The notes under the pieces: model-generated
Databases searched by the model: none
What the model saw: only the letters and a program-made list of their open reading frames with translations
Told to the model about the DNA's origin: nothing
Position numbers and translations under genes: made by a program
Source: an uncultured bacterium
Lineage (GTDB): Bacteria > Oederibacteriota > JAAXVQ01 > JAUVAV01
DNA length: 64,000 nucleotides
Direction: 5' to 3'
Assembly (NCBI GenBank): GCA_963710755.1
Contig: CAVQBK010000001.1
Coordinates: 64,001 to 128,000 of the forward strand
Shown here: positions 20,825 to 62,116 of the stretch, piece after piece
Layout of the letters: every line of letters starts with the position of its first letter
Numbering within the stretch: position 1 is the first letter of the stretch

Positions 20825-23029
20825 ATGGCGGGAATAAGGGGGCTGACAGCAGTTGCCATGATGGGAGTGGTCATGACCGGCGCCATGGCAGGGCTGGTTC
20901 AAGCCATGGACAGCTTTAGTCCGGTAACAGAGCTCATGCTATTCAGTGATGAGATTATGGTCATGTCTGCTACCAAGCGCCTGCAAAAGCTTTCGGAAGT
21001 ACCCGGGTCGGTGACCATCATCACCGAAAAGGAAATTAAAGAACGGGGCGCTTTAACTATTTACGAAGCGCTGACCAATATGACCGGGGTGAGCTTTGCC
21101 AATGAAGGCTTGTTCAACACCATGCGTTTCCGCGGCATGCAAGCGTCCTATAATAACAAGATTTTGGTTTTAGTGGACGGCCGCAAGATCAATGAAATGG
21201 ATTGGGGTAATTACAATGGTGATTTCGGCACCCATTTAGCCAATGTCAAGCAAATCGAGGTGATCAAAGGTCCGGGGTCATCCCTCTATGGGGCCAATGC
21301 CTATGCCGGAGTCATCAATATCGTGACCAAGGACGGAGCTGAAATCAGCGGGCTAAGTACCGAGGTTAGTATAGGCAACAAACCAGGTGATTTTGAAGTG
21401 TCTCAGAAATATACCATGACTTACGGAACCCAAAACGGGGACTGGGATTATAAGGTATCAACTAGTTATTGGAGGGAAAAGGGCATTGATCCTTATAACC
21501 ATCCCAGTCCCAACAACTTGTTTACCGGCGACCAGGCTAATTTCAGTCTGAAATGGAAAGATCAATGGAGCCTGCAAGGCGGCTATCAACGGACTAAAAA
21601 TCCATGGAATGGATCCGAATGGACGCCCACACCTAAAAATGCTGAAGAATTGGAAATATTATATTTGGACAGTACCTATACTATGGAGCTTAATGATCTT
21701 TCCAAAGTCAAGTTGCGGATAAGTGACAACTATGATTTGAATAAAGTCTTGCTCAGTGAGTATTGGGATTTAAACCGTATCAAGATTAACTCACTAAGCG
21801 ATTTGCCTTCTCCTTCCCCTGTGATCATTGTCACCGATACCGGAGAAATGCAGCCGATTGCCAATGCCATCGGCCGTTACTACATCCCTTTTGAAAATTT
21901 TATCAATCTGGCCAACAACCAGGCCCTTGATGTGGTGGCTTTGGGCCGCGGCCAAATCAACGAATTCATGACAGATGTACAGTATGACCTTTCCTGGCCG
22001 CGAAATAATTATTTGTTGGCCGGCGTCAATGTGCAATACGGTTGGTCCAATATGGATTATTACAATCAGCCCCAGGTGACAGATAACAATTACGCGGTTT
22101 ATGTTCAGGATGAGTATCATTTGGGTGATCAGCTCATTCTTTTGAGTGGGTTGCGTTATGACTACAACCAGGATTATGGCAGTAATCTTAGCCCCCGGGA
22201 AAGCGTTATCTATGAACCTGTGAAAGGGTTGCGTCTGAAAGGCTTATATGGCAGCGCTTTTCGCGCGCCCGTGATATCGGAACGCTATTCAGAGACGGAT
22301 TATGGTTTTTATGAAGCCACGGGCAATATTAATTTAAAACCTGAAAACATCCAGCAGAGTGAAGCCAGCATAGAATACGAGCTGGGCAAATGGCTGCAGG
22401 CCAAGGCCGGTTATTTTTATTGGGAAACGCACAATGAAATTCAATTTGATTATACTTATGCCAATTTGTACGCTTATGTGCCTGATTTCAACCTGATCGA
22501 TCCCATGCAACCACACATGGCAGGACTGCTTTATTTGAAGGACCTAAATGTGGCCCCGGCCTTGGTGACTTGGGACAACACCAACAGCCGCATTGGCCAT
22601 GGGGTGGAACTGGAAACCATCTTGACCCCGAGTGATTTTACCAAGCTTAAACTCAATTACAGCCGGATCAATCTTTACGCCCGGGATATTCCTGGAGCAC
22701 CAGAATGGGATCAAGGCATAGCGACGATAGCCAATGCTGTTTTGGAATTACATTATAAAGACTTGGTTTTCCTGAATTTTTATGCCCATCTGTCGTCAAG
22801 TCCAACCAAAAACACTAATGGCGGCTTGGACGGAAACGGCTATTACATAGCGTCCAAATGGTTGCCTCTGTATGACGTGAGCCTGGGCTTTAACATTGAC
22901 AAATTCAGCCTGGTGGCCGCGGCTTACAATGTCTTTGAAAATCCTGTGGCCTATGATAGTGCCATTGATGATTACCTGAAAGGCCAGACCCTTTATCGTG
23001 TGAATTTGGGGTATACCCTTAAATTTTAA
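20825..23029 (+). CDS. TonB-dependent receptor, array copy 5
   Basis: Same motifs; signal peptide and C-terminus nearly identical to copy 4. Confidence 0.92.
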   Translation: MAGIRGLTAVAMMGVVMTGAMAGLVQAMDSFSPVTELMLFSDEIMVMSATKRLQKLSEVPGSVTIITEKEIKERGALTIYEALTNMTGVSFANEGLFNTMRFRGMQASYNNKILVLVDGRKINEMDWGNYNGDFGTHLANVKQIEVIKGPGSSLYGANAYAGVINIVTKDGAEISGLSTEVSIGNKPGDFEVSQKYTMTYGTQNGDWDYKVSTSYWREKGIDPYNHPSPNNLFTGDQANFSLKWKDQWSLQGGYQRTKNPWNGSEWTPTPKNAEELEILYLDSTYTMELNDLSKVKLRISDNYDLNKVLLSEYWDLNRIKINSLSDLPSPSPVIIVTDTGEMQPIANAIGRYYIPFENFINLANNQALDVVALGRGQINEFMTDVQYDLSWPRNNYLLAGVNVQYGWSNMDYYNQPQVTDNNYAVYVQDEYHLGDQLILLSGLRYDYNQDYGSNLSPRESVIYEPVKGLRLKGLYGSAFRAPVISERYSETDYGFYEATGNINLKPENIQQSEASIEYELGKWLQAKAGYFYWETHNEIQFDYTYANLYAYVPDFNLIDPMQPHMAGLLYLKDLNVAPALVTWDNTNSRIGHGVELETILTPSDFTKLKLNYSRINLYARDIPGAPEWDQGIATIANAVLELHYKDLVFLNFYAHLSSSPTKNTNGGLDGNGYYIASKWLPLYDVSLGFNIDKFSLVAAAYNVFENPVAYDSAIDDYLKGQTLYRVNLGYTLKF

Positions 23030-23057
23030 AAGTATTGTTGAACAATCCCAATGGAGG

Positions 23058-25271
23058 ATGAAAGAAATGATAAAAAATGGACCTTTGGCTTTAATCGTGG
23101 CTCTGGTAGTGACCTCCACGACAACCGTTGCAGTAAAAGCCATGAGTGATTTGAACCAAGTCACGGAACTCATGCTTTTCAGCGATGAGATCATGGTCCA
23201 ATCAGCTACCAAGCGTCTGCAAAAGCTCTCCGAAGTGCCGGGATCGGTGACCATCATTACGGCTAAAGAGATTGAGGAACGGGGAGCCTTAACCATTTAT
23301 GAAGCCTTGAATAACATGACTGGTGTCAGCTTTGCCAATGAAGGTCTGTTTAATACCATGCGTTTTCGTGGCATGCAGGCTTCTTACAACAATAAAATAT
23401 TGCTTCTAGTGGACGGCAGGAAAGTCAATGTCCTCGATTGGGGCAATTATGACGGTAACTTTGGCACCAATCTGGACAATGTCAAGCAGATCGAGGTAAT
23501 CAAGGGTCCCGGGTCTTCGCTCTACGGCGCCAATGCCTATGCCGGTGTGATCAGTATTATCACCAAAACCGGTGCCGAGATCGGTGGTCTGAAAACCGAG
23601 ATGAGCGTAAGCAATAAACCCGGTGATTTTGAGGTGTCCCAAAAGTACAGCCTGACCTATGGTACCAAACAGGATGGCCTGGATTACAAAGTCTCGGCCA
23701 GCTATTGGCGCCAATTGGGCATTGACCCTTTTAATGATCCTCGCCCCAATGATTTATATGAAGGAGAAGATGCCAACTTTAGCCTAAATTTGAAGGATAT
23801 CTGGACACTCCAGGGCGGTTATCACCGTTCCAGCGAACCTTGGAGCGGGTCGGTGTATACGCCAACTCCCAGGAATAATCAGAAAATGGAAATGCTTTAT
23901 TTGGACAGCACCTATACGCTGGGGTTGAATGAATTGTCCAAATTGAAACTCCATATAAGCGATAATTATAACACCTCAAAATTCCTTGAGACGGAATTGT
24001 GGGACCTGGACAGGCAGAAAATTAATAGCGCGGCTGATTTGCCTACTCCTACGCCATCTATTATTGTTACCGACAAAGGGGACATGCAACCAGTAACCAA
24101 TGCCATCGGCAATTATTATATTGGTGTCAATGACTTTCTTAGAATTGTCAGCGGCAGCGGCTTAGATGTAGTGGGTTTAGGTAAAGGACAGATGAATGAA
24201 TTTATCGCTGAAGTCCAATATGACCTGTCCTGGCCGCAGAACAACTATCTTTTGGCCGGGATTAATATGAAATTGGACTGGTCCAACCAGATTTATTTTG
24301 TGACCGATCAAGTCACGGATAACAATTATGCTGCTTATATCCAGGATGAATATCACTTGGCCGATAAATTAATCCTTTTAAGCGGATTGCGTTTTGACTA
24401 TAACCGGGATTATGGTAATAATCTCAGCCCCCGGGAAAGCTTGATCTACGAACCCCTTAAAGGCCTGCGCTTTAAAGGCCTTTATGGAAGTGCTTTTAGA
24501 TCGCCGGTGATGTTGGAAAGATATAGCAATACGGATTACGGGTTTTATGAAGCCACCGGCAACCCTGATGTAAAACCGGAAAGCATTCAGCAAAGTGAAG
24601 CCAGCGTGGAATACGAGCTGGGTAAATGGCTGCAGGCCAAGGCGAACTATTTTTACTGGGAAACGCAAAATGAAATCCAATTTGTCTATACCTTTGGATC
24701 GCTCTATGTCTATTCACCTGATCTCAGCCTGATCAGCCCTCTTATGCCCGCCGTGCCGGGTCTGTTCTATGCTACTCCCTTAAATGTCGCACCGGCACTG
24801 GTGAGTTGGGATAATTCCAACAGCCGTATCGGCCATGGATTGGAATTGGAGACATCGATTACACCTACTGACTATGCTCGAATTAAATTAAATTACAGTC
24901 GCGTCAATCTTTATGCGCGGGAAAAGCCAGCCCATCCATCATGGGCGCAAGGCGTGGCTGATGTGGGCAATGGTGTGTTGGAACTGCATTATAAAAATGT
25001 ACTCTTTTTCAATTTTTATGCTCATATTAGCCGGACGCCCATGACTATTGACAGCGGTTCCACAGCGACGTCCGGCCCGGGAGCTGAGGTGACCGCCAAA
25101 TGGCTGCCGCAATATGATGTCAGCTTGGGATGCAATTATCAGGGGTTAAGCCTGGTAGGGGCAGTCTATAATATTTTTAATAACCCCGTGGCCTATGACA
25201 CCCTTAACGATAATTATCTGAAGGCCGAGCCCATCTACAGACTCAATGCTTCCTATACTCTGAAGTTTTAG
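23058..25271 (+). CDS. TonB-dependent receptor, array copy 6
   Basis: Same motifs; true start may be ATG 23067 (GGAGG SD at 23053). Confidence 0.92.
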   Translation: MKEMIKNGPLALIVALVVTSTTTVAVKAMSDLNQVTELMLFSDEIMVQSATKRLQKLSEVPGSVTIITAKEIEERGALTIYEALNNMTGVSFANEGLFNTMRFRGMQASYNNKILLLVDGRKVNVLDWGNYDGNFGTNLDNVKQIEVIKGPGSSLYGANAYAGVISIITKTGAEIGGLKTEMSVSNKPGDFEVSQKYSLTYGTKQDGLDYKVSASYWRQLGIDPFNDPRPNDLYEGEDANFSLNLKDIWTLQGGYHRSSEPWSGSVYTPTPRNNQKMEMLYLDSTYTLGLNELSKLKLHISDNYNTSKFLETELWDLDRQKINSAADLPTPTPSIIVTDKGDMQPVTNAIGNYYIGVNDFLRIVSGSGLDVVGLGKGQMNEFIAEVQYDLSWPQNNYLLAGINMKLDWSNQIYFVTDQVTDNNYAAYIQDEYHLADKLILLSGLRFDYNRDYGNNLSPRESLIYEPLKGLRFKGLYGSAFRSPVMLERYSNTDYGFYEATGNPDVKPESIQQSEASVEYELGKWLQAKANYFYWETQNEIQFVYTFGSLYVYSPDLSLISPLMPAVPGLFYATPLNVAPALVSWDNSNSRIGHGLELETSITPTDYARIKLNYSRVNLYAREKPAHPSWAQGVADVGNGVLELHYKNVLFFNFYAHISRTPMTIDSGSTATSGPGAEVTAKWLPQYDVSLGCNYQGLSLVGAVYNIFNNPVAYDTLNDNYLKAEPIYRLNASYTLKF

Positions 25272-26552: not shown

Positions 26553-27920
26553 TTGAAGCCAACAGTATTAGTTGTCGACGATGATAAGCAGGTCAATGAA
26601 GCCTTAACTCTCATGCTCCAGGATGAGTACAATCCCATCACTGCAACCTCCGGCTTTGAAGCCTTAGAGAAGATCAATAAAAATTCCAATATTGACTTAG
26701 TCCTGCTCGATATTACTATGCCCGAAATGGACGGGCTGGAAGTCCTGAGGAGGATCAAGGAATCCGAACCTTTCCTGGATGTCATCATGGTGACGGCCAC
26801 CAATACTACTGAAGCAGCGGTTAAAACCATTAAATATGGCGCCTACGATTATGTGACCAAGCCTTTTGACAATGCGGAATTAAAAGCCATTATCAACCGG
26901 GCCCTGGAAAAACGAAATCTTTCCAAACTCACAGAAGTCTTGTCTTCTGAAATTGAACGGCTTGTGGAATATGACATTATTGGCAACAGTGACGCTATGC
27001 GGGGCGTTTATTCCATGATTGATAAGGTAGCCGATTCAGACACTACGGTGCTGATTCATGGCGAAAGCGGCACAGGCAAGGAATTGGTGGCCCGCGCGCT
27101 ACATAAAAAAAGTCCCCGTTCTAAAAAACCCTTTGTGGCTGTTAACTGCGCTGCCATCCCGGCGGAACTGGTGGAAAGTGAATTTTTTGGCCATGAACGT
27201 GGGGCTTTTACTTCGGCTGTATCAAGAAAAATCGGAAAATTTGAGTATGCCAATGGCGGGGTTATTTTTCTCGATGATGTAGGCGAGTTGCCTTTGTCCG
27301 TTCAAGCCAAATTACTGCGGGTCCTGCAGGAAAAAGAAATCGTGCGCGTTGGCTCCAATGAATTGATCCCGGTGGATGTGCGGGTGGTCGCTGCCACTAA
27401 TGACAACCTTCAGGAATTGATCAAACAGCGCCGTTTCAGAGAAGACCTGTATTACCGTCTGAAAGTGGTGCCTATTGAATTGCCGCCTTTGCGGGTGAGA
27501 CGGGAAGATATTCCCAACTTAATCGAACACTTTATCCGCAAAAGCTGTGAACGCCATCATAAGTCTTTTAAAAATATCGATCCCGAAGCCCTGCGTTTGT
27601 TGGTCAACTATAATTGGCCCGGCAATGTGCGGGAATTGGAGAACATGGTGGAGATGGTGGTATTGCTCTCCAGTAGCAATTCTATTTCCGCCAGCGATCT
27701 GCCGTCCAATGTGCTTACCAATCAGGCTTTGGCCGATGGCAGTGATCAAAGCGGAGAAAATCTAACTTTGAAAAAGGCGCGCCAACAGTTTGAGCGCCAG
27801 TTTATTTTAAGAGTTTTGGAAAAATTGCATTGGAATCAAACCAAAGCAGCCAAGATAATGGGCATTCATCGCAATACGCTGATTATCAAGATGGAAGAGC
27901 TGGGCATTAAAAAAGATTAA
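26553..27920 (+). CDS. NtrC/AtoC-family sigma54-dependent response regulator (REC-AAA+-Fis HTH)
   Basis: REC domain; GESGTGKE; GAFTSA; FREDLYYRL; WPGNVREL; NQTKAA..MGIHRNTL HTH. Confidence 0.95.
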   Translation: MKPTVLVVDDDKQVNEALTLMLQDEYNPITATSGFEALEKINKNSNIDLVLLDITMPEMDGLEVLRRIKESEPFLDVIMVTATNTTEAAVKTIKYGAYDYVTKPFDNAELKAIINRALEKRNLSKLTEVLSSEIERLVEYDIIGNSDAMRGVYSMIDKVADSDTTVLIHGESGTGKELVARALHKKSPRSKKPFVAVNCAAIPAELVESEFFGHERGAFTSAVSRKIGKFEYANGGVIFLDDVGELPLSVQAKLLRVLQEKEIVRVGSNELIPVDVRVVAATNDNLQELIKQRRFREDLYYRLKVVPIELPPLRVRREDIPNLIEHFIRKSCERHHKSFKNIDPEALRLLVNYNWPGNVRELENMVEMVVLLSSSNSISASDLPSNVLTNQALADGSDQSGENLTLKKARQQFERQFILRVLEKLHWNQTKAAKIMGIHRNTLIIKMEELGIKKD

Positions 27921-28451
27921 TCTTACAAAAAAGATTGCACCATTTTTTTTAAAAATGGTATACTTCAACCAGTCCCATGGTGGAAAGGGGGGGAACTATG
28001 GGAGTCTGCAGTTTTACTCATTTGCTGTTGCATTCCCAAGCCCAATGCAAGTCCTTTTCTGACAGAACCCCAAACTGCCAGCCGTCCAGTTATAGTCAAA
28101 ACAGTCTTACCAGAGATATCGGCCACATTAAGTTGTGTTTTTTGAACAAGTCGACCACAAGATATGCACAAACCCTATACCAACCTCATTTAACCGCTGC
28201 TGCCAACACCATAAAGAAGACCTTTTTAAAAAAATTTACCTTAACACGAAAAAATTTCACCAGTTGGGCGTTGTAAAAAAGGGTGTACTGAGACTGTGAA
28301 AAGAACTTTTTATGGGAGAATGCCATTGCTGCTGTTTTTTGTGCAGGATGTTTCTCAATTATAGGTTCGTCACATTTCAAAAAAACTTTAGGGAGGAGGC
28401 GTTGATTTTGTAAAAAAAAGCAGTTCCATTAAAAGTTAAGAGGAGGGAAAG

Positions 28452-28928
28452 ATGAGAAAGAAAATGTTAATCGTGGATGATAACGAAAATTTGAGGGAAG
28501 CTTTGCAACTGATGTTCGAAGACCATTATGATCTTAAGTTTGCGGCCTCCGGTGAAGAAGCTATTCAATCTTTTGACCAATTCAATCCTGAAGTAGTCCT
28601 GATGGATTTCCAAATGCCCGGTCTTGACGGGGTTCAAACCATGCAAGTGTTAAGAGAGCAATCCGCCCAATCCCAGATGATCATCATGTCTGCCTATAAT
28701 GAAAAAGAACGGGTAAGAAGCGCTTTCCGAAACGGGGCCTTTGATTTCGTGACCAAACCCTTTGACGTAAAAGACCTGAAAACCATGGTGGAAAATGCCG
28801 CTGCCAACGCGGACAAGATCATTAATTTCCAGCCCTCGGCCTATCTGGTGCAAGCCAAAGAAGCAGCCTTTAACCAACGGGAAGTCGACCAAATGGTGGA
28901 ACGTACGCTGCAAGCAGCTTGCTGCTAA
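28452..28928 (+). CDS. Stand-alone receiver-domain response regulator with short C-terminal tail
   Basis: LIVDD, LMDFQMP, MSAY, KPF; strong AGGAGG SD. Confidence 0.9.
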   Translation: MRKKMLIVDDNENLREALQLMFEDHYDLKFAASGEEAIQSFDQFNPEVVLMDFQMPGLDGVQTMQVLREQSAQSQMIIMSAYNEKERVRSAFRNGAFDFVTKPFDVKDLKTMVENAAANADKIINFQPSAYLVQAKEAAFNQREVDQMVERTLQAACC

Positions 28929-28960
28929 AGTTTCATTGATGTCAAAAGGGGGGAGTAGTC

Positions 28961-29875
28961 ATGAATTTAATGGCCGTTAGTCCGGAAAGCAGATCCACAA
29001 ATCAATCACCGGTGTTTGTACCCACAGCACAAGTCAATCCGGCCAATGCGATTTTGAAATTTGAAAAAGCCTCTGAAAAAACAACCCGCTATACCGAAAA
29101 CAGTACTATTTACAGATTAAAAGGCGGGTTTGAGGCCGAGGTTATAAAACAACCTTCACGCAGAATAAAAGACCAACCAATCCTGAACAGGATCTATCAG
29201 GAATTAAGAATCGTGACTTTGCGGGCCTTTAACAAGGATATTTCGGAAGCTGAGACCTATGTGCCCAGATATGTTATGGAAAAAAATGTTTTGGATGTAG
29301 ATTGGTTAATCGTGGTGAGAAAATATAATCAGCCTGTTGCCTTTGGCGCAGGGACTTATGTTACGCCATTTATTTTCTACTTAAATGGTGCCATGGTTCA
29401 TCCTGATTATCAATCAACAGGCGTTGGACTGATTGCCAATAGTTTACTGTGGAAAATCGTGTGCGATGAGGTTAAGGATATGGGCCTGGGTGAAGCGGAT
29501 TTTGTGTGCCGAACTCACAATCGCAATGTGGCCAGTGTAATGTTGCATGTTTTTGAAGAAGGCTATATTTCCACAGAAAAAGAATGTAGTTCCGACCATT
29601 GCCGAATTTTTAACAAAACAGCCAATAAAATTGGTGGTCATTATTGTCCGCAAAGCGGCATTGCTAAAAATGCCTATCCGGAAGGACTGCCGTGTGGGAC
29701 GAAGATCACCAACATGAGAATAAATAACGCGTTTGTTGGTTTGGGAGAAAAAGATGGTTTGTTTGTTGCTGGGAAAATGAAATATCATTATTTGCAAAAC
29801 ATTTTGAAAAAGAATGTTAAGGAAATTCATGAATACCAAGAGTTGAAAGGCCTGGAATACAAATTGTGTGCATGA
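28961..29875 (+). CDS. GNAT-fold acyltransferase-like protein (possible signal synthase)
   Basis: YLNGAMVHPDYQSTGVG matches GNAT motif A (V.P.YQ..G.G); downstream FVCRTHN; SD present. Confidence 0.6.
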   Translation: MNLMAVSPESRSTNQSPVFVPTAQVNPANAILKFEKASEKTTRYTENSTIYRLKGGFEAEVIKQPSRRIKDQPILNRIYQELRIVTLRAFNKDISEAETYVPRYVMEKNVLDVDWLIVVRKYNQPVAFGAGTYVTPFIFYLNGAMVHPDYQSTGVGLIANSLLWKIVCDEVKDMGLGEADFVCRTHNRNVASVMLHVFEEGYISTEKECSSDHCRIFNKTANKIGGHYCPQSGIAKNAYPEGLPCGTKITNMRINNAFVGLGEKDGLFVAGKMKYHYLQNILKKNVKEIHEYQELKGLEYKLCA

Positions 29876-29912
29876 GTTAAGAAACGTTGTTTTTAAAATT
29901 CAAACGTATTAG

Positions 29913-30641
29913 TTGTGTGGATTGGGGATTGTAGTGTTTGACTTAAGAAAAAAAGTCAAGTCATGGTTATGGGGCGTTTATCCGTGGGTATATGATTTAG
30001 CAGTATTGCAAGGGTTGCCTTATTTGGAATTGATTGAAACCGTGGTGATTTCTCTTGAGGAAAGATATCACGATAAAAATAATATGCTGGTTTTGGATGC
30101 ATGTTGCGGGACTGGTAATTTTTCAAAAGCCCTCATTAATAATTTCAAAATCCAATCCTTGGTAGGGATAGACTTTTCCAAGGGCATGATTAAAAAAGCC
30201 AAAAAGAAAATTCCGCTTCTCAAAGCTATTAATGCTCCTTTGCTTGAAGGGTTAAAAAAAATACCGGATAATAATTTTGATATTATTGTTTTGGTGAACG
30301 GCTTCTATCCTCTTGAAGAAAAACATGAGATCCTGCTAAACTTGAAAAGAGTGTTGAAAGTTAATGGTACCTTTATTATGACCGATCCTAAAAAAGGAGC
30401 TAGTTTGTTTTCCTTGATAAAAGAACATTTTTTAAAAGGGAGTTTTGCTCAAAAAATGAAATTACCACTATTTGTTTTTTCAATTCTGATTAGCCTGATT
30501 TTTCAGTTTGGTATAAAATATAATTTCTTAACTAGTGAGGAAACTAAAGGACTTTTAATAAAGACTGGCCTAATGATTGACGAGGAAAAATCAGCATATG
30601 CTGATCAGAATTATTTCTTTGTTTTAAGGAAAGGGAATTGA
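29913..30641 (+). CDS. Class I SAM-dependent methyltransferase
   Basis: VLDACCGTGN motif I, GIDFSKGM, FDIIV, RVLK.NG; start uncertain. Confidence 0.88.
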   Translation: MCGLGIVVFDLRKKVKSWLWGVYPWVYDLAVLQGLPYLELIETVVISLEERYHDKNNMLVLDACCGTGNFSKALINNFKIQSLVGIDFSKGMIKKAKKKIPLLKAINAPLLEGLKKIPDNNFDIIVLVNGFYPLEEKHEILLNLKRVLKVNGTFIMTDPKKGASLFSLIKEHFLKGSFAQKMKLPLFVFSILISLIFQFGIKYNFLTSEETKGLLIKTGLMIDEEKSAYADQNYFFVLRKGN

Positions 30642-30642
30642 G

Positions 30643-32852
30643 TTGCTCCATGAACACATTCTGATAATTGCTATTATTGATTTTGCTCTCGGGCTTTATA
30701 TTTTATTTAAGAATCCCAAAAAGCAACCTAATGTGGCCTTTGCACTCCTCTCTTTAAACTTCACCCTGTGGCTGGTCGGATTATTTTTATTGATGAATTC
30801 ACATGAATATAAAAATGTTTTGGTTTGGGGGCGCCTTACTTTTACTGGTGGGATGTTAGCGCCCGCGGCTTTGCTCCATTTTATTAAGTCTTTTCCTGAT
30901 AAAAAAATAAACTTCAAAAAGATTTGGCTTCTATATTCTCCTGGTTTGATATCCCTAGTACTATCTATTACACCTCTTGTAATTAAAGATGTGAAAATAC
31001 ATAGCTGGGGCCTGGAGCCTGTTCCGGGAATAGGCTATGCTTTTGTAATTGTTTATTTTATATCGTATATTATTTTGTCCATAATATCTATTCTTAAAGA
31101 ATTTTTAAAATCGAAAAATGTAAAAAAAATGCATTGGTTATATATTTTGTTCGGATTTCCTATTCCTGTGGCACATGTTTTAACCACGAATATCATTCTG
31201 CCATTGCTGGGATTTAAAAATGTCTATGTTTTTGGTCCTTGGGCAACTATCGAAATGTGTTTGCTGTTCAGCTATGCGATACTTAAATATCGATTGTTAG
31301 AAGTCGAAATAATATTTAAAAGAACGTCGATTTATCTGATGCTAGCTGCTTTTATTTCGTGTGTATATATTTTCTTTTTAATACTGCCTTTGGAAATATT
31401 TAAAAGTATTGGTCGAAATGGATCGTTGGCTGTTATGTTCATATCGGCAATAATTATTGCTTTGACAATTCAGCCTCTTCGCGAATGGCTTGATCGGGTG
31501 ACGGATCGTTTTTTCTTTCAAAAGAAATATGACTACACTAAAATATTGGAAAAAGTTTCAAAGCAATTAAATACAGTCATGCACAACCGGGATGCTTATG
31601 ATGCCGTTATGGATCCCATGCTCAATGAGATGCATTTGAAGGGCGCGGCCATTTATCTCCATGCTAAACCGGGGGATGAGTATTTTGAATGCCAGAAAAA
31701 AGATGGGAACTTGGGCCTCTGTTTTGCCCGAAAAAATCCAGGATAGTAGTATGTTGCTGGAGTATTTAAGTCAGCAAGCCAAATATCTTGATCCTGGTGA
31801 ATTTCGTTACGAATATGGCCATCTCTATGCGGATGGTGAGATCAAGGATCCCCGCAAGGCAGCCATTCAAAATGAAATGGACCAAGTATTCCATGGGGCG
31901 TTACTCATTCCCTTAATGCTCAAAACCAATATGATCGGTTTTATGACACTTGGGAGAAAAGCGGTCCGGAGATCAATTCAGCCATCGTGATTTATCCTTG
32001 CTGGAAACCATTGCCACTCAATTGGTGACGGCTTTGGACAATATCCGCCTTTATGAGCAGATGTTCAACAACGAGCGTCTGGCGGTCATTGGCACCATGT
32101 CCGCCAGCATTGCCCATGAAATCCGCAATCCCTTGGCCTCCATCAAAACTTTTATTCAAATGCTGGAAGACAAGCACAATTCGCCGCCCTTTATGGATAA
32201 ATTCAACCGTATTGTGCCCTCGGAGATCGAACGTATTGCCAGGATTACAGCCGACTTGCTGGCTTTTTCCAAGCCTTCGGCTCCCAGTCTGACCGCGGTA
32301 AAAGTAACGGACATGGTAGAAAAAGTATTGGCCTTAATGGCGCCACAGCTGAGGAAAAAACAAATCAAAGTGGAGAACAATGCGGACAAAGACATGACCA
32401 TCCATGCTGATTCGCAACAGATTTTCCAGGTGATTTTAAATATTTTTCTCAATGCCATGCAAGCTTCACCCAGTGGCACTACCATTACGGTGACCACCAA
32501 GGTCAGGGAAGAGAAACGGCGGACTGAAGAAGGGCAGAAATATTATGGTTATATCATGATCCAGGACCAGGGCAGTGGCATTAAGGAAAAAGAGATTGCC
32601 AATATTTTCCAGCCTTTTTTTACCACCAAGACCGATGGCACCGGCCTGGGGCTGCCTACGTGCAAACGCATTGTGGAAGCCCATCAAGGCTTTATTGATG
32701 TGGACAGCCAAGAAAATGTGGGCACCAAAATGACCGTGGTGGTGCCCATGAATTTAAGCCAGGCTGACCTGGGCTTGCCGCCCGAAACCGCGGCGGAAAC
32801 CACGGAATCCCTTCGAAGCCCGGTGCCCCTGCCGCAAGTGCAGCCGGAATGA
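30643..32852 (+). CDS. 7TM (HisKA_7TM-like)-GAF-histidine kinase, split by two +1 frameshifts
   Basis: ORFs 30643-31746, 31661-31990 and 31950-32852 join: N-terminal TM sensor (KNPKKQPN..F, YAILKYRLL), GAF (LGEKRSGDQF...DL.LL), AHEIRNPL H-box, DQGSGI / FQPFFTTK.DGTGLGL ATPase. Confidence 0.85.
32805..32850 (+). repeat. 46-bp direct repeat, left copy (3' end of kinase gene; att-like)
   Basis: GAATCCCTTCGAAGCCCGGTGCCCCTGCCGCAAGTGCAGCCGGAAT; 45/46 identical to 37828-37873. Confidence 0.95.
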
Positions 32853-33476: not shown

Positions 33477-34067
33477 ATGAAATTAATCCTGACTTTATTA
33501 GGCATTTTAATACCTGTAATCTCAGTTGCAGCTATGCAATCCACGGATGCCATTATGGAAAAAGACGTTTTTAATATGACTGGTAATACGGCTACCGCAG
33601 GCAGCGAACAATTACAAAGCTCGGTTGGTGAAATGGCGATAGGTCAATTTAACGGCGAGGGTATGATTCAAGCCGGCTTTTTTAATGATTTCGTTCTACC
33701 TGTACCCACAGCCACCCCAACTGCCACCATAACGCCCACACTTGTTCCTACAGCCACACCTATGGCGGGTTTTGACGGCAAACTGATTTCAAAAAATTAT
33801 GTGTATTGCGCACCCAATCCCAGTCGTGGCAGCATCATGAATTTTGTTGTCCATACAGCCCAGGCTTGCGATGTTGACGTTAAAATGTATACATCGACAC
33901 ATAAGTTTGTGTTGAGTTTTGAGATGGCATCCAACCAAATGGAAAAAATTACCCATCACTTGTACGTCGGCAACTTGGCCAACGGTGTTTATTTTATGCT
34001 GGTTGAGGCCCGTAATAAAGAAGGTGTGGAAGAACGGCTGATTAAAAAAGTTGCGTTAATAAAGTGA
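33477..34067 (+). CDS. Small secreted protein with Pro/Thr linker and T9SS type-A-like C-terminal sorting domain
   Basis: Signal peptide; PTATPTATITPT linker; APNP...VKMYT.....V...LANGVYF...KKVALIK resembles the YPNP/LxxGxY/KxxxxK CTD. Confidence 0.75.
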   Translation: MKLILTLLGILIPVISVAAMQSTDAIMEKDVFNMTGNTATAGSEQLQSSVGEMAIGQFNGEGMIQAGFFNDFVLPVPTATPTATITPTLVPTATPMAGFDGKLISKNYVYCAPNPSRGSIMNFVVHTAQACDVDVKMYTSTHKFVLSFEMASNQMEKITHHLYVGNLANGVYFMLVEARNKEGVEERLIKKVALIK

Positions 34068-34140
34068 TGAAGCATTTGAAAATCTTACCTAATAGGACTT
34101 TATTGTATGATCTTATTAGAGGGAACATCAGGAGGGGGAA

Positions 34141-35082
34141 ATGAAAAATATTAAAGTAATTGCTGTAATGGCGGGCTTGCTTTCGATGGCTGCTTTTGTT
34201 TCGGCCAATGTGCAAGCGGTTTTTAATTACCAGGGCCGCCTAACGCAGCAAGATGGCACACCCTATACCGGAAATCATTCCATTACATTGAGTATTTACG
34301 ATGTTCCAACAGGAGGGGTGGCATTGCGCAGCGCTGTTTATCAGCGCAATATCATGAATGGCTATTTCAATATACAATTCGGCACGGAAGTTACCATGGA
34401 TATATCCACACTGCCTTTTGATCAGCAGTATTATATCGGTGTTCGTGTGGATGCTCAGGACGAAATGACGCCTAGGGAAAAGTTAGGCAGTGTGGCCTAT
34501 GCCATGAGGGCAATGTCCTCTGGTTCGATAGATGATAATGCAGTAACTACAGCTAAATTAAGTGACAGTGCGGTTACCGGTCCCAAACTTGCAACCTCTG
34601 CCGCTAGCCTGGATAAGTTAGCAAGCAATGCCGTTAACAGTTCCAAAATTGTTGATGGTAGTGTGGCGCAAGCGGACTTGGCTATGAATGCTGTCATGCC
34701 GGTTGGATCTATTATTGCGTGGCACAAATCGTTGTATAATACTCTCCCTTCAAATTGGGTGGAATGCAATGGAGGAACGGTTAGTGATTCCAGCAGCCCT
34801 ATCAATGGAAGTCCTATACCCAATTTAAATGGCGAGGGGCGGTTTTTGCGGGGAGGCACGACATCGGGCACTATGCAAGCTGATGAGTTGAAAAATCATA
34901 CACACAAGGTCATATCGAGCTGGGTGTCTGGCAATCGAACAGAATGGCACGTCGTTGCTGATTGGACAGATGCTAATGATGGGCCAACTGATGAAAAAAA
35001 TGGGCCGTCACTAACCAGCACTGGCGGTGGTGAGACAAGACCGATCAATATGAGCGTGATTTGGATTATGAAAATAAAATAA
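34141..35082 (+). CDS. Secreted tail-fibre-like protein with phage tail-collar domain
   Basis: Signal peptide; FNYQGRLT...G.P N-domain; 10-aa repeats (IDDNAVTTAK, LSDSAVTGPK, LASNAVNSSK); MPVGSIIAW..PSNWVECNG..PNL..RFLRG collar; GGETRP.N....IMKIK end. Confidence 0.8.
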   Translation: MKNIKVIAVMAGLLSMAAFVSANVQAVFNYQGRLTQQDGTPYTGNHSITLSIYDVPTGGVALRSAVYQRNIMNGYFNIQFGTEVTMDISTLPFDQQYYIGVRVDAQDEMTPREKLGSVAYAMRAMSSGSIDDNAVTTAKLSDSAVTGPKLATSAASLDKLASNAVNSSKIVDGSVAQADLAMNAVMPVGSIIAWHKSLYNTLPSNWVECNGGTVSDSSSPINGSPIPNLNGEGRFLRGGTTSGTMQADELKNHTHKVISSWVSGNRTEWHVVADWTDANDGPTDEKNGPSLTSTGGGETRPINMSVIWIMKIK

Positions 35083-35094
35083 TCGAGGTAAATA

Positions 35095-35742
35095 ATGATC
35101 GCTGCTGAAGTTGTTAATATTCCCTTGCGGCATAAATTGCTGCTAAGAGAATTGGTCAAAATTAAACAAAGATATTTTGATAAAACAAAGATCAATTTGT
35201 TAGATATAGGCGGCTCTAATGGCGCGTTTCTTGAATTGGTAAAAACTCAATGTTCTGATTTTGAAGAAGCAGGGCTAGTAGAAATTGATGATCATTTCAA
35301 GGAAAGAATATTAAATTTTGGGAAGTTTTATTATCAAGATTTACAGATGGGCACCGGAGATATTCCGTCGGGGAAATACCAAGTAATTACGATGTGGGAA
35401 TTGGTTGAACATATTGAAAATAATTACGGGCTGTTTAGGAATATTTATAAATTGTTACCTCCAAATGGCTTAATTGCGATTTCAACACCGAATGTTTGCA
35501 GCTTAAGCCGGCTTATTAAAGGTGAAAAATGGATAGGAGTGAGAGACAAAAGTCATAAGGTATTAATGAGCCATGTTTCTCTTAAAATGATTTTAGAAAA
35601 TTGCGGATTTGAAGTGATTTTGTCGCGGAATTATTTTTTTCCTAATCGCTTGCCCCCGGCATTGGATTGGTTTAATAATTTAATTTCAGCATTTCCTGGC
35701 GGGGGGATGTTATTTATGGCAGCGGTTAAAAGGAGCTCGTGA
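35095..35742 (+). CDS. Class I SAM-dependent methyltransferase (surface-glycan-associated type)
   Basis: LLDIGGSNGAFL, ITMWELVEHI, LLPPNG.I.ISTPN. Confidence 0.88.
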   Translation: MIAAEVVNIPLRHKLLLRELVKIKQRYFDKTKINLLDIGGSNGAFLELVKTQCSDFEEAGLVEIDDHFKERILNFGKFYYQDLQMGTGDIPSGKYQVITMWELVEHIENNYGLFRNIYKLLPPNGLIAISTPNVCSLSRLIKGEKWIGVRDKSHKVLMSHVSLKMILENCGFEVILSRNYFFPNRLPPALDWFNNLISAFPGGGMLFMAAVKRSS

Positions 35743-35793
35743 TCCGCCGTCACGAATTGCAAGTGAAACCCGGCCCAAAAATATGAGTATCGT

Positions 35794-37716
35794 TTGGATT
35801 ATGAAAATAAAGTAACTAAGCCGATGCGATTGGACAACCTTACGAAAAATGACAGTTTCATAAGAAAAATCACCAGTTTTGTCATAAATAATAATGGCAT
35901 GAGATTTTTGCTGATCTGCATGTCTATTATCAATATCACTTATTTGCTTGCGCTCAAAACTTTCGAAGAAAAAGCAGCGTTGTTTTTTATCAATCCTAAT
36001 TTTCCATCTGATGTGCTAGCTTGGATGTTGAAAACCTTTATCCTGGTAAGTGTTTTATTAACAGGATCTTATATTGGTTTTCGAAAAATATTCCTTAATC
36101 GCAAACCCGGAAAAAACCGGGGCATTTTGGCTTACCTGCCGTTTGCTTTGTTGTTTCCCGTGGTTATCATTGCTGGAATTATGCCGATACATCTCCATTT
36201 TACCATTTTATTGCTTAAATATTCCTTGGCCGGCTTTCTTGTCATTAATGTCATCCTCTTTTTTAATGAAAAGTCCATTAATGATATTGTAACCAATTTA
36301 AGTGTGTCTGCGAATAAACATCTGGGCAAAATAGCGCTATTATATTTTTTAATCGTGAGCTTATTAGCTGTATTAAGACATTTTTCCATTAATACACATG
36401 GTTATGATCTGGGCATATTCGATCAGGTGGTGTGGAAATATAGTAAACTAGCCTCACCCTTCAGCAGCATTTTGTCCAAAAATATGCTGGGAGAACACTT
36501 TTCTCCGATTTTAATGCTGTTGGTGCCGTTATACTGGATCTGGTCCAGCCCTGTAGTTTTATTAGTTGCCCAAACTTTTTTTTTGGCGCTAGGTGGTTGG
36601 ATTTTGATGAATTTGGCCAAGAAAGAACTCGATTCTCCGGCTTTAATAATAATCACCGTTTTGGCCTATTTTGGCTTCCCTTATTTGATCCACGCCAACC
36701 TGTACGATTTTCATGAAGTGGCCTTTGAAGTGCCTATTCTCTTTGCCTTTTTCTGGGCAATATTAAATAAGAAATACGCCTTTTCTTTTTTATTCGGTCT
36801 GCTTTTTTTATTCTGTAAAGAAGATACCTTCCTCTATTTAATCGGTTTTTCCTTGATCCGCACGATCATGCTGTTGTTGGGAGATAAGGACAAAAAGGAA
36901 ATAGCCTTACATGCCATTCTAATGGTTGTGGCCGTGATCTGTGGAATTAGTGTTCTTAAATACATTATGCCTCATTTCACCCCCGGCCATGCAGGTTACA
37001 ATCTTGCCAGGTATAAGAATTTAGGAAATACTTTTTCTGAAATAGCCGCAACTTATCTGTTTCGTTTTCCCTATTTGATAAAACTCTTGTTTCAATCAGA
37101 CCGTTTTGTTTATTTACTAAGATTGTTTGCAACCCTGGGATTCGTACCTCTTTTAAGCCCGGGGTACTTTCTGATAAGTCTTGTTCCTATTGCCGCCGTT
37201 ATTTTTGGCCAATATAACGAGTTCATAAGGATGGATTTGCAGTATGCCTTGCCTATTATTCCTTTTCTTTTTTTAGCCTATCTTTTTGGTATGCGGCAAC
37301 TGGAAAAATTAATGGCAAGTGAAAATAAGAAAAAATGGTTTTTACCAGCCGTGACTTTTTTAGCCTGTCTTATTATTCTGAATATTAAGGTCAGGGATTT
37401 TATTCCGTTGATACCCGATCAACATGGTTTGGCAGCCTATAAAATGCTGGAGAAAGTGCCGCCTCACGCCAGTGTTTCCGCTCAGTCCGATCTGGTGCCC
37501 CATCTTTCTCAACGCGATCAAATCTATAATTTCCCTGAAGTCAACAATGCCCGGTATATTGCATTAGACCAAAAAGGGAACTACTGGCCGCTTGATAAAT
37601 CCGATTATGAAAAAAAGGTTGCAGCCATTTTGACGGCACCGGCTTATAAGCTGATCTATTCCTATGATGGTTATTTGTTGTTCGAAAAGCAAGGTGATAA
37701 AGTGGAAAATCACTGA
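35794..37716 (+). CDS. DUF2079-like multi-pass membrane protein (putative GT-C glycosyltransferase)
   Basis: YDLGIFDQ, GEHFSPIL, YDFHEVAF, CKED, PHLSQR motifs; many TM helices. Confidence 0.8.
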   Translation: MDYENKVTKPMRLDNLTKNDSFIRKITSFVINNNGMRFLLICMSIINITYLLALKTFEEKAALFFINPNFPSDVLAWMLKTFILVSVLLTGSYIGFRKIFLNRKPGKNRGILAYLPFALLFPVVIIAGIMPIHLHFTILLLKYSLAGFLVINVILFFNEKSINDIVTNLSVSANKHLGKIALLYFLIVSLLAVLRHFSINTHGYDLGIFDQVVWKYSKLASPFSSILSKNMLGEHFSPILMLLVPLYWIWSSPVVLLVAQTFFLALGGWILMNLAKKELDSPALIIITVLAYFGFPYLIHANLYDFHEVAFEVPILFAFFWAILNKKYAFSFLFGLLFLFCKEDTFLYLIGFSLIRTIMLLLGDKDKKEIALHAILMVVAVICGISVLKYIMPHFTPGHAGYNLARYKNLGNTFSEIAATYLFRFPYLIKLLFQSDRFVYLLRLFATLGFVPLLSPGYFLISLVPIAAVIFGQYNEFIRMDLQYALPIIPFLFLAYLFGMRQLEKLMASENKKKWFLPAVTFLACLIILNIKVRDFIPLIPDQHGLAAYKMLEKVPPHASVSAQSDLVPHLSQRDQIYNFPEVNNARYIALDQKGNYWPLDKSDYEKKVAAILTAPAYKLIYSYDGYLLFEKQGDKVENH

Positions 37717-38539: not shown

Positions 38540-40189
38540 GTGGGAAAAAATAAAGTCTGTTTTTCAATGAGCGTGCTGAGCTTGTGTGCCTTGATGATGT
38601 TGGCCGGCTGCAGCCGGCAAAAAGAGGAAGATCGCATCCCCAATCCTTTGGTCCATTACAGTCCGGCCTACGGCGATGCCATTGTAGAAGGCACCATAGC
38701 CGATCCTGCTATCCTCAATCCGGTATTGGCCTCTGATTCCGCCTCTTTTGAAGTCATTGATCTGGTGTTCAGCTCGCTGCTGAAAATGGACAAAGATCTT
38801 AATCTGGTGGGGGATGTGGCCAAGAGTTGGAAAATATCTCCTGATGGCAAGGTGATTACCTTCTACTTAAAAGAGAATGTTAAATTCCACGATGGCGCGC
38901 CCTTAACGGCCAATGATGTGCAGTTTACCATAGCCACGTTCCTTGATCCTAAAATTAAAACGGCTTACCGCAGTAATTTTGAAAACATCACCAAGACCGA
39001 AGTGATCAATGATTACACTTTCCGGGTGACTTATCGCGAACCTTTTGCACCCTCCTTGGAGCGTATTGGCGGCATGGCCATCCTACCCAGACATTTACTT
39101 AAGGGTCGGGATATTAATACGGCCGATGATTTTAATTTCAAACCTATTGGCTCCGGTCCCTATAAGTTCGTTAAATGGACCCGGGCGGAATCGGTTGTTC
39201 TAAAAGCCAATGCCGAATATTTCGATAGCCGGCCCTATCTGAACCGGGTGGTTTTCCGCATCATTCCCGATTCAGCGGTGGAATTTTTGGAGCTGCAAAA
39301 CGGGGGCCTGGATATGATGAGCCTGACCCCGGATCAATATACGGGAGAAGCCAGCACCGAAAATTTCGAAAAACGATTTAACAAATATCGCTATCCTGCC
39401 AGTCAGTACACCTATTTGGGCTTTAACTTACGAAAAGACATTTTTAAGGATAAGCGTTTCCGGCAAGCCATTGACATGGCTATTGATAAAAAAGCGTTGG
39501 TCAAAAGCGTGCTCGACGGTCTGGGACAGGAATCCACCGGACCGTTTACGCCCAATTCCTGGGCCTTCAATCCTGAAGTCAAACCGGAACCTTTTGATCC
39601 GCTGCGGGCCAGAGAAATCCTGACCCAGCAACTGGGGTACACCTATAAAAATGACGGCATGCTTTACAAAAACAATCGGCCGCTGGAATTGACCATCCAG
39701 ACCAACCAGGGCAACCGCAACCGGGAACAATCGGCCACCATTATCCAAGCCCAGTTGAAGGAAATTGGAATCAAAGTTAATATCCGTATCATTGCCTGGA
39801 GCACCTTTTTGGATCAATTTATTAATAAACGGAAATTCGATATGGTGTTGATGGGGTGGTCCCTGCCTCGTGATCCTGACAATTACGCTATTTTTCATTC
39901 TTCTCAGACCAAAGAGCATGAATTCAACTTTTTATCCTACAAGAATCCTGAGGTAGATCGTTTGTTGGAAGAAGCCCGGGTCACCTATAACAAGGAAAAA
40001 CGCAAACGCATGTATTATCGCGTCCATGCTCTTATCGCTGCTGATCTGCCCTGTGTTTTTCTATATGTGCCGGATAGTCTGCCCTGCGTGCACCGCAGAA
40101 TATTAGGCATTGATCCGGGCCCGGCCGGCATAGGTTACAATTTCACCAAATGGTTTGTACCGGAAGGCTATCAAAAATACGCCAAATAA
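38540..40189 (+). CDS. Peptide ABC transporter substrate-binding lipoprotein (OppA/AppA family)
   Basis: Lipobox LAGC; VKFHDG.PLTA.DV.FT; PIGSGPYKF; D.RFRQA. Confidence 0.93.
   Translation: MGKNKVCFSMSVLSLCALMMLAGCSRQKEEDRIPNPLVHYSPAYGDAIVEGTIADPAILNPVLASDSASFEVIDLVFSSLLKMDKDLNLVGDVAKSWKISPDGKVITFYLKENVKFHDGAPLTANDVQFTIATFLDPKIKTAYRSNFENITKTEVINDYTFRVTYREPFAPSLERIGGMAILPRHLLKGRDINTADDFNFKPIGSGPYKFVKWTRAESVVLKANAEYFDSRPYLNRVVFRIIPDSAVEFLELQNGGLDMMSLTPDQYTGEASTENFEKRFNKYRYPASQYTYLGFNLRKDIFKDKRFRQAIDMAIDKKALVKSVLDGLGQESTGPFTPNSWAFNPEVKPEPFDPLRAREILTQQLGYTYKNDGMLYKNNRPLELTIQTNQGNRNREQSATIIQAQLKEIGIKVNIRIIAWSTFLDQFINKRKFDMVLMGWSLPRDPDNYAIFHSSQTKEHEFNFLSYKNPEVDRLLEEARVTYNKEKRKRMYYRVHALIAADLPCVFLYVPDSLPCVHRRILGIDPGPAGIGYNFTKWFVPEGYQKYAK

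Positions 40190-60541: not shown

Positions 60542-62116
<1,575 letters not shown>

Follow-up and report, generated by a model that had tools for sequence, protein, structure and literature searches.

Introduction

In the agr system, the agrBDC alleles are linked and agrA is not, and frameshifts are frequent, mostly in agrC, according to the accessible part of PMC8768832; for comQXP, the available text of PMC4408185 describes pherotypes that are coupled to comQXP polymorphism. In both systems, a hypervariable block comprises the signal-making genes and the kinase sensor, and the regulator is conserved. Here, we describe a locus with this pattern on the + strand of a 64,000-nucleotide stretch of contig CAVQBK010000001.1 from an uncultured soil bacterium (the whole stretch is called the window below). 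Seven open reading frames (ORFs), all co-oriented, lie at 26553-32852, and the module that they form consists of five genes, for an NtrC-type activator, a receiver, a GNAT protein, a variable enzyme that uses S-adenosylmethionine (SAM), and a kinase with a seven-transmembrane (7TM) sensor and a GAF domain. Comparison with related species indicates that the catalytic part of the GNAT protein, the tailoring enzyme, and the 7TM domain make up a cassette that is replaced jointly inside a conserved backbone. We suggest, giving it about an even chance, that the module encodes the synthase of a self-made ligand together with the cognate receptor.

The module differs from agr and comQXP, in which a precursor gene encodes a ribosomal peptide signal, in that it has no conserved small ORF; since its enzymes are a GNAT protein and a SAM-using enzyme, a small acylated metabolite is expected instead. 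It also differs in its kinase, which has a HisKA_7TM sensor similar to a G protein-coupled receptor (GPCR) and a GAF domain, and in its output, a sigma-54 activator. Furthermore, the polymorphism of the module is seen between species of a genus, and not yet within a species.

Two other systems, LuxM/LuxN-LuxO of Vibrio and phcBSR(Q) of Ralstonia, are like the module in that a small-molecule signal enzyme is encoded with a membrane kinase and receivers. LuxN signaling ends in LuxO, an NtrC-type sigma-54 activator. In the Phc system, a SAM methyltransferase makes a fatty-acid methyl ester signal, which the kinase PhcS senses, as the accessible portion of PMC8578825 has it. Both systems differ from the module in having no sequence relation to it (NCBIfam, with models of PhcB and LuxM not included), and a GNAT protein is absent from both.

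PrsK/PrsR of the PEP-CTERM system is a further parallel, in which a GNAT-fold acyltransferase likewise stands beside a histidine kinase with several transmembrane (TM) helices and a GAF domain and beside a sigma-54 activator. A 2011 paper by Craig et al., to judge by its title, reportedly links TIGR03694-type synthases to PEP-CTERM. The module differs from that system in that its GNAT protein belongs to another family than TIGR03694 (hhalign probability 0.6%), and cassette-like replacement was not found described for PrsK/PEP-CTERM in the literature. Haft et al. call the stimulus of PrsK obscure in the part of PMC1569441 that is available. Literature searches, supplementary files aside, gave no account of either the module or its GNAT family. 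The kind of system is thus known; its parts and its cassette behavior are new.

Organization of the locus

The locus has the following features.

26553-27920, + strand: NtrC-type sigma-54-dependent response regulator with REC, AAA+ sigma-54 interaction, and Fis-type helix-turn-helix domains (Pfam Response_reg, Sigma54_activat 1e-73, AAA_lid_14, HTH_8)
27921-28451, + strand: intergenic region of 531 nt, with a G7 run within a local hairpin (about 27972-28006)
28452-28928, + strand: stand-alone receiver (158 aa) whose C-terminal helix is conserved (Response_reg 2.3e-27)
28961-29293, + strand: N-terminal part of the GNAT protein, codons 1-111, with a disordered head, a beta-hairpin, and helices (predicted from the model)
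29294-29875, + strand: putative catalytic part of the GNAT protein, codons 112-304, where the hypervariable cassette starts (model and fold searches)
29913-30641, + strand: class I SAM-dependent methyltransferase of 242 aa, in the variable tailoring slot (Methyltransf_31/25/11)
30643-31308, + strand: HisKA_7TM sensor domain of the kinase, codons 1-222, where the hypervariable cassette ends (PF16927, 1.1e-19)
31309-32852, + strand: kinase backbone with two more TM helices, GAF, HisKA, and HATPase_c, and with two +1 frameshifts

The gaps are 32 nt between the receiver and GNAT genes, 37 nt between the GNAT and methyltransferase genes, and 1 nt between the methyltransferase and kinase genes; the activator and the receiver are 531 nt apart. 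The genes that flank the module differ among loci, and the unit is therefore these five genes. An earlier interpretation of the window, made from its letters and an ORF list (the sequence-only reading), had given the extent of the locus, the positions of the GNAT and methyltransferase genes, the common orientation, and gaps of 1-37 nt, all of which the ORF list and the Pfam searches bear out. The stand-alone receiver and the class I SAM methyltransferase that it named are confirmed by their Pfam matches, and an NtrC-type activator does lie upstream, 531 nt before the receiver.

Comparison of the loci of congeneric species

Amino-acid identities were compared in two congeneric pairs of loci, L019/L015 (g5) and L014/L017 (g7). 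The values for g5 and g7 are given in that order.

Activator: 91%; 89%
Receiver: 91%; 82%
GNAT residues 45-111: 90%; 34%
GNAT catalytic part (112-290): 31%; 52%
Tailoring slot: methyltransferase vs. radical SAM enzyme; methyltransferase vs. two B12-radical SAM enzymes
7TM domain (1-222): 21%; 27%
TM8-9 and linker: 83%; 62%
GAF: 85%; 55%
HisKA/ATPase: 85%; 79%

Both pairs show the agr-like and comQXP-like combination of a hypervariable block, made up of the presumed signal-making genes and the kinase sensor, with a conserved regulator. The DNA of L019 and L015 is 87-88% identical up to about codon 111 of the GNAT gene, where the identity is lost, and it is back at about codon 216 of the kinase gene. 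Between L014 and L017, the similarity ends at about GNAT codon 20 and is back at about kinase codon 217. Both points of resumption coincide with the end of the Pfam 7TM domain. Since residues 45-111 of the GNAT protein are 90% identical in L019/L015, they are outside the swapped cassette in that pair. The base composition of the window itself follows the same division: the GC content at third codon positions is 0.38-0.42 for the GNAT gene and 0.33 for both the methyltransferase gene and the 7TM region, which form the cassette, and it is 0.51-0.52 for the activator and receiver and 0.59 for the catalytic part of the kinase, which belong to the backbone.

The tailoring slot is occupied by different SAM-using enzymes. 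A class I methyltransferase is found in the window, L014, and L019. L015, L016, L022, and L003 instead have a radical SAM enzyme, about 360 aa long and rich in Cys at its C-terminus. The slot of L017 holds two B12-binding radical SAM enzymes, and that of L018 a ThiF-methyltransferase fusion, for whose ThiF part the best NCBIfam model is PRK08223, with 247 of 266 bits, just below the cut-off. In the paralogous loci L020 and L021, the slot is empty. The window's methyltransferase is far under every NCBIfam equivalog cut-off, the best being UbiE with 54.5 of 216 bits. The sequence-only reading had proposed a methyl-tailored product, which agrees with the cassette type of the window and does not extend to the other species, where a radical SAM enzyme, B12-radical SAM enzymes, or the ThiF-methyltransferase fills the slot.

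The 7TM domains are 47-60% identical among the three methyltransferase loci, 37-46% among the radical-SAM/B12 loci, and only 20-28% between these classes, and a tree of the 7TM domains is split by tailoring-enzyme class with a support of 0.999. The type of 7TM domain thus appears to track the class of tailoring enzyme rather than taxonomy. Joint replacement of this kind would, by analogy with agr and comQXP, be a signature of synthase-receptor specificity pairs. Conflict systems, too, typically show cassette-like replacement of linked genes among close relatives, and SAM-dependent tailoring is common in natural-product pathways, so the module might be read as an antagonism system that makes a toxic small molecule, with the variable 7TM domain giving recognition or self-protection and a polymorphism like that of toxins and their immunity proteins. 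We give this hardly any credence: the variable membrane part belongs to a complete signaling kinase, which is paired with two response regulators, and across the loci of relatives the module has no conserved gene for a transporter or of immunity type.

Outside the module, L019 (G029:C80) and L015 (G027:C17) have almost no alignable DNA, just 85 nt upstream, and the module is therefore in different surroundings in these two congeneric species.

Distribution of the module

The GNAT gene is present in 10/99 genomes of the phylum, all within two families of one order (6/10 and 3/4 genomes, the window's own not counted). The order has 15 genomes including that of the window, and 10 of the 15 are GNAT-positive; the window's genome contains a single copy. 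The orthologous kinase is found in nine of the ten GNAT-positive genomes and in none of the five negative ones, save for one paralogue with 31% identity. The activator orthologue occurs in the same 10 genomes and in one incomplete genome, the contig of which ends within 1 kb. We suggest from this co-distribution that the genes of the module are present or absent together within the order.

Neighborhoods were compared at 11 places outside the window, among which the distant family members P0008-P0030 are not included; scans of metagenome contigs contributed one of the loci and scans of genome contigs three. The receiver gene is directly upstream of the GNAT gene in 9/11 places, and the activator orthologue is upstream in 8/11. 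Three of the 11 run into a contig edge before the position of the kinase. Linkage of GNAT homologues to HisKA_7TM kinases, which the sequence-only reading had named as a check on itself, is found in 8/8 loci with enough flanking DNA, the kinase being 0-2 genes downstream. L020 and L021 are a paralogous form, in which the kinase gene directly follows the GNAT gene without a receiver, and a GAF-sigma-54 activator is nearby.

The GNAT protein

The 304-aa protein has no Pfam match at E<=0.01 and no PDB sequence match, whether searched as a single sequence or as a profile. It has no NCBIfam match at E<=1 either, in line with the earlier statement that it could be matched to no named synthase. Its family is tiny, with 29 representatives at E<=0.001 among 1.84 billion searched and seven clusters, its own included, among 5.8 billion. 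The GNAT-like character claimed for the protein was borne out at the level of the fold. The AlphaFold model has a predicted local distance difference test (pLDDT) of 82.2 and a predicted template-modeling score of 0.78, with disorder at residues 1-40 (pLDDT <50) and 292-304. The best VIA-align match is Ard1 (4pv6_C), with Z 13.7 and a root-mean-square deviation (rmsd) of 2.6 over 146 aligned residues, followed by RimI (Z 13.3), AAC(2')-Ia (Z 12.8), and the tabtoxin resistance protein (Z 11.8); the best 50 rows fall flatly to Z 11.0, and their titles are all acetyltransferase or GNAT-like. A Foldseek search of the PDB gave 145 matches at E<=0.001, and language-model neighbors also agree with the GNAT fold. 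The Pfam family itself is not reached by the window protein, which scores 15.9 bits against Acetyltransf_1, under the cut-off of 20.7; 8/29 family members match this model at E<=0.1, the best at 2.2e-4.

In GNAT proteins, motif A (Q/R-x-x-G-x-G/A) is the pyrophosphate-binding loop for coenzyme A (CoA). The window protein has a CoA-type motif A, YQSTGVG, at residues 150-156, and Q151, G154, and G156 are invariant in 7 sequences. Across the 29-sequence alignment, G156, R184, N187, S204, G233, Y239, D265, and G271 are invariant, and the motifs of the family are RTxN, ISTE, GI..VYP.GLP.G, and D(A/G)C. When the elements of the model are set against the aligned ranges, about 60 residues are inserted ahead of the final strand of the core, after the one before it. 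Ala is frequent as the last residue of the family's proteins, whose C-terminal tails are not conserved. On the strength of the model, we assign the protein as a GNAT-fold enzyme of an orphan family.

The sequence-only reading had also likened the protein to LuxI, LuxM, and N-acyl amino acid synthases, and this part is not supported. None of the 29 family members matches PF00765 (LuxI), PF21926 (FeeM), PF13444 (Acetyltransf_5), or TIGR03694 at E<=0.1. A comparison of the family profile with a 27-sequence TIGR03694-type profile, which represents the FeeM/LuxI-like family, gave an hhalign probability of 0.6%, and kinship by sequence with LuxI, FeeM, or the N-acyl amino acid synthases was rejected on this profile comparison. 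TIGR03694 has no match in the window's genome at E<=10, and no structure titled LuxI or FeeM is among the best 40-50 Foldseek and VIA-align matches listed. The nearest folds are generic CoA-type acetyltransferases.

Two longer proteins, P0032 and P0033, hold a true domain of the GNAT family (hhalign 99.5% and 99.6%). They come from an exhaustive search; a word-index search for longer proteins gave none. P0032 has a PlsC-type lipid acyltransferase domain (PF01553, 4.2e-19) in front of the GNAT-family domain, a fusion that, as far as sequence goes, points to fatty-acyl chemistry. The fusion is arranged like the bifunctional OlsF. Aminolipid synthesis of the OlsF and GlsB/GlsA type combines an N-acyltransferase with a PlsC-type O-acyltransferase, and the window's module differs from it in having no PlsC-type gene. 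The OlsF model (NF052615) matches the PlsC part of P0032 alone, with 17.5 of 620 bits, and gives no match to the window's GNAT protein (NCBIfam, E<=1).

The presence of AAC(2')-Ia and the tabtoxin resistance protein among the close folds would fit a module that senses and modifies, in which the kinase detects an exogenous hydrophobic compound, such as an antibiotic or another organism's lipid or signal, the GNAT protein and the tailoring enzyme inactivate it by acylation, methylation, or other means, and the cassettes track environmental targets. Co-variation of sensor and enzyme is likewise expected if both recognize one outside compound. We nevertheless consider this reading unlikely. Radical SAM and B12-radical SAM enzymes, as found in the tailoring slot, are generally more typical of biosynthesis than of detoxification. 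Furthermore, L020 and L021 keep the GNAT protein and the kinase without a tailoring enzyme, and the enzymes share an operon with the receiver and the kinase, as they do in synthase-receptor operons.

The kinase

The kinase gene of the window is in three pieces.

30643-31746, + strand: ORF with HisKA_7TM (Pfam 1.1e-19)
31661-31990, + strand: ORF of 109 aa (ORF list)
31950-32852, + strand: ORF with HisKA and HATPase_c (Pfam)

Alignment of four intact orthologues by tblastn shows these to be collinear segments of one kinase gene, each in another frame; the two +1 shifts, near 31691 and near 31953, each coincide with a short single-base run. In relatives, the kinase is a single ORF of 696-738 aa in 8/8 loci with a kinase on the fetched DNA, and the domain order of the intact proteins is HisKA_7TM, GAF, HisKA, HATPase_c; GAF_2 matches an intact orthologue at 9.9e-9. 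The HisKA and HATPase_c domains are in other frames than the 7TM domain in the window and in the same frame in relatives. The sequence-only reading had described one kinase gene, and its domains (HisKA_7TM, HisKA, and HATPase_c) are all present; the single intact gene is not, as the coding sequence is spread here over three frames. The 7TM sensor that it recognized also stands. The HisKA_7TM match in the window has 71.7 bits against a cut-off of 28.6 and covers Pfam positions 6-221, which places the domain in PF16927. The description of the sensor as purely intramembrane does not hold, as two further hydrophobic helices and then a cytoplasmic GAF domain follow the 7TM region in our reading of the sequence.

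The window holds an intact ORF of 2138 aa and many ORFs of about 730 aa, and no further split gene was found among the other window ORFs scanned against Pfam. Since two shifts lie inside 260 nt and the other ORFs are whole, random sequencing error is unlikely. A local consensus error at the edge of the polymorphic block may explain the frameshifts. No more than 0.20 of the words were matched in three soil-metagenome runs from a single study, and the contigs of these runs are clean over 31328-31602 and 32367-32715, which include neither frameshift site. None of the listed runs with matching sequence is an RNA run. If these frameshifts are genuine, production of the molecule may continue in a cell that cannot sense it.

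The model of the first 305 residues of the kinase (pLDDT 75.8) has seven helices, and a beta-hairpin separates helix 4 from helix 5. Its best VIA-align match is the GABA-B receptor (9jqx_A), with Z 16.2 and rmsd 3.1 over 215 aligned residues. The best 50 rows, nearly all of them GPCRs by title, run from Z 16.2 to 12.9 over about 200-220 residues, values just moderately higher than those of helical bundles in general, for which scores below about 13 are common. The best Foldseek value is 4.3e-4. The modeled sensor thus has a resemblance in fold to a GPCR, with no homology implied.

Of the 679 positions of the PrsK model (TIGR02916), 100-679 are covered by the alignment with the intact orthologous kinase, which scores 137 bits, under the cut-off of 300; the 7TM piece from the window gives 14.8 bits. 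Exosortase (PF09721) was found in 0/15 genomes of the order; PEP-CTERM proteins themselves were not searched for.

Another kinase with a 7TM domain is encoded elsewhere in the window's genome (G000:C1:33871-35871), in an open frame of 735 aa that is 30% identical to the kinase of the module.

The properties of the kinase bear on the question of whether the ligand is a signal at all. The 7TM domain is hydrophobic and, from its sequence, has short loops, the kinase has a cytoplasmic GAF domain, no exporter was found in the module, and P0032 is fused to a PlsC-type lipid acyltransferase, which follows the logic of two-step aminolipid synthesis. These points would be in accord with the sensing of an internal or membrane state, in which a membrane lipid or cofactor-like ligand (e.g., an N-acyl amino acid or an aminolipid) is monitored by the 7TM/GAF kinase for envelope feedback in the same cell. 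This is an unlikely account, however, because a housekeeping ligand should be conserved, yet the cassette is replaced in a backbone that is 79-91% identical, as would fit diversifying selection on specificity. Moreover, the module is patchy within the order (10/15 genomes), and so is dispensable.

The activator, the receiver, and the region between them

The activator orthologues are 69-76% identical across the order, and the window's genome encodes rpoN. A scan of the window for the sigma-54 consensus gave 40 matches, where 40.6 were expected. Candidates of the form GG-N9-TGC occur in a few of the gaps, at about chance level, and that of the window is wrongly spaced.

The receiver has 56.8 of 800 bits against the LuxO model. 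In an alignment of 10 receiver sequences, A3, E144, T152, L153, A156, and C157 are invariant. Residues 140-158 form an extra helix, (I/V)(T/S)Q.E(V/I)D..I..TLR.AC, followed by L, V, I, or C, with the Cys invariant. What is the function of this conserved tail? It could be a target or docking site if the GNAT protein were a regulatory protein acyltransferase that acylates the receiver, the activator, or the kinase. The best structural neighbors of the GNAT protein are indeed protein N-terminal acetyltransferases (Ard1, Z 13.7; RimI, Z 13.3; NatD; Naa50), and its gene directly follows that of the receiver in 9/11 related loci. These fold scores are tied, however, with those of many small-molecule GNAT proteins, and the paralogous loci L020 and L021 keep the GNAT protein and the kinase without a receiver. 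Furthermore, the proteins of the pathway are conserved and the catalytic part of the GNAT protein is hypervariable, contrary to the prediction for a fixed protein substrate, and the variable SAM enzymes would be left without a role. Acylation of a pathway protein is therefore a highly improbable function. A predicted complex of the GNAT protein with the receiver has a score of 0.00, obtained without controls, and counts neither way.

The region between the activator and receiver genes has a run of G6-7, mostly followed by A, 20-100 nt past the activator stop codon in 9/9 loci. Single-sequence folds place the run in a hairpin loop in five of the nine (the window, L017, L018, L022, and L023). 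The stems around it vary by locus (CCCATAG/CTGTGGG vs. CTCATGG/CCAGTGAG), and RNAalifold consensus support for the hairpin is weak, at -0.5 kcal/mol. Rfam has no match in this gap. No small ORF is conserved in the gap of the 9 loci, and one locus is without any.

A ribosomal precursor peptide (RiPP) was considered as the source of a signal and rejected, as the gap contains no conserved small ORF and the remaining gaps of the module are too short.

Proposed mechanism

The CoA-type motif, the PlsC fusion, and the membrane-embedded receptor together suggest an N-acylated hydrophobic small molecule. In the mechanism that we propose, the orphan GNAT enzyme would N-acylate an amine or amino-acid-like acceptor from an acyl-CoA. 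The SAM-using neighbor, here the class I methyltransferase, would tailor the product to a small, probably hydrophobic molecule; by analogy with PhcB of phcBSR, the molecule of the window would be methylated. The tailored molecule would then be the ligand of the GPCR-like 7TM domain in the adjacent kinase, and the kinase, by way of its GAF, HisKA, and ATPase domains, would control the receiver and the NtrC-type sigma-54 activator, its putative phosphotransfer partners. Private pairs of signal and receptor would differ from one related species to the next, as they do among agr groups or comQXP pherotypes.

The sequence-only reading had the locus make its own signal and sense it through the co-encoded kinase. 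This is supported in part, by the linkage, the co-distribution, and the joint replacement of the cassette. We infer the product, acyl donor, acceptor, ligand binding, and action between cells from sequence, and the receptor gene is frameshifted here. A more specific form of the proposal is a combinatorial non-peptide "dialect" system, in which an N-acyl scaffold receives a species-specific decoration from the SAM enzyme (an O/N-methyltransferase, a radical SAM enzyme, B12-radical SAM methylases, or the ThiF-methyltransferase) and the 7TM kinase reads the cognate variant alone. We put this forward tentatively, as a possibility with the balance against it.

Several observations weigh against a self-made ligand with a cognate receptor. 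The GNAT protein is unrelated in sequence to any known signal synthase, and since its fold scores are tied between protein N-terminal and small-molecule acetyltransferases, the transfer of acetyl rather than long-chain acyl groups is possible. The catalytic part of the GNAT protein falls into two deep clades, each mixed in tailoring-enzyme class, which means that the parts reassort as well. The tailoring gene directly adjoins the kinase gene at its 5' end, and physical linkage alone could account for the inheritance of the two together. The comparison comprises nine loci of related genomes and few independent events. In the window itself, the kinase gene is broken, and the sole other genome of its genus (92% complete) has no GNAT protein, kinase, or activator. 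The cytoplasmic GAF domain of the kinase could be the real ligand site. Finally, no canonical or conserved sigma-54 promoter and no autoregulatory site were found at the loci, and no exporter was found in the module.

Related acyltransferase loci in the phylum

TIGR03694, the PEP-CTERM/exosortase system-associated acyltransferase, is present in two other genomes of the phylum (loci L037 and L038). Both proteins match Acetyltransf_5 and FeeM, and one also matches Autoind_synth. L038 (G057:C121:1-6226) is a co-directional row of four stand-alone HisKA_7TM proteins, the TIGR03694 acyltransferase, ThiF, a fifth HisKA_7TM protein, and a GAF-GAF-HisKA kinase. Its HisKA_7TM proteins have 218-295 aa, the kinase is soluble and cut by the contig end, and its ThiF protein has no match to PRK08223. 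This row looks like a split, multiplied version of the 7TM kinase. Taken together with the module, it means that two unrelated GNAT families share one kind of HisKA_7TM neighborhood.

In L037 (G014:C78:4920-13329), a PilZ domain is fused to the TIGR03694-type acyltransferase, and a ThiF protein past the cut-off of PRK08223 (328 vs. 266 bits), the model that also fits the ThiF part of the L018 fusion best, follows. Downstream of ThiF are a nitroreductase-like protein similar to the C-terminus of Rv1355c, an ATP-binding cassette (ABC) ATPase, a permease of 785 aa, and a LolA-like protein. L037 may be an acyltransferase controlled by cyclic di-GMP, with an export set.

Neighboring genes in the window

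Upstream of the module, the ORF of 2138 aa at 4813-11229 has a weak fibronectin type III match as its sole Pfam match. It is followed on the + strand, at 11752-25271, by six tandem ORFs of 672-739 aa. Those at 11752, 20825, and 23058 are TonB-dependent receptors (Plug and beta-barrel), and the other three are assigned to the same group by size and position.

Downstream of the kinase, the four genes at 33477-37716 encode a small protein with a near-threshold sorting tail of the type IX secretion system (Por_Secre_tail, 26.2 of 27 bits), a 313-aa protein that falls into no family, another methyltransferase (Methyltransf_23), and a membrane protein of the DUF2079 type. These four genes are not conserved beside the module in relatives. 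At 38540-45141 are the genes of a peptide ABC transporter of the Opp type, with one binding protein, two permeases, and two ATPases; a gene of the FAA-hydrolase family separates the gene of the first permease from that of the binding protein. Positions 60542-64000 hold an rRNA operon, with 16S, two tRNAs, and the beginning of 23S.

Conclusions

If the module is a pair of synthase and cognate receptor, it adds two new parts, a GNAT family and a ligand domain that resembles a GPCR and is coupled, in a bacterium, to a histidine kinase. Each natural cassette would then be a matched set of enzymes and receptor for expression and cross-testing. The "dialect" form of the proposal, if true, would also provide a ligand class for HisKA_7TM/PrsK-type kinases, for which no stimulus has been known since 2006, going by the accessible part of PMC1569441. 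The intact enzymes beside a frameshifted receptor would make the bacterium of the window a natural "signal-blind" variant, of a kind that is common for agr according to the available text of PMC8768832. Private specificity groups, which are a hallmark of peptide pheromones in Firmicutes, would extend to small acylated metabolites in a candidate phylum known from metagenomes only. The more specific proposal, if true, would make this the first non-peptide signaling family with agr-like exchangeable cassettes of synthase and receptor.

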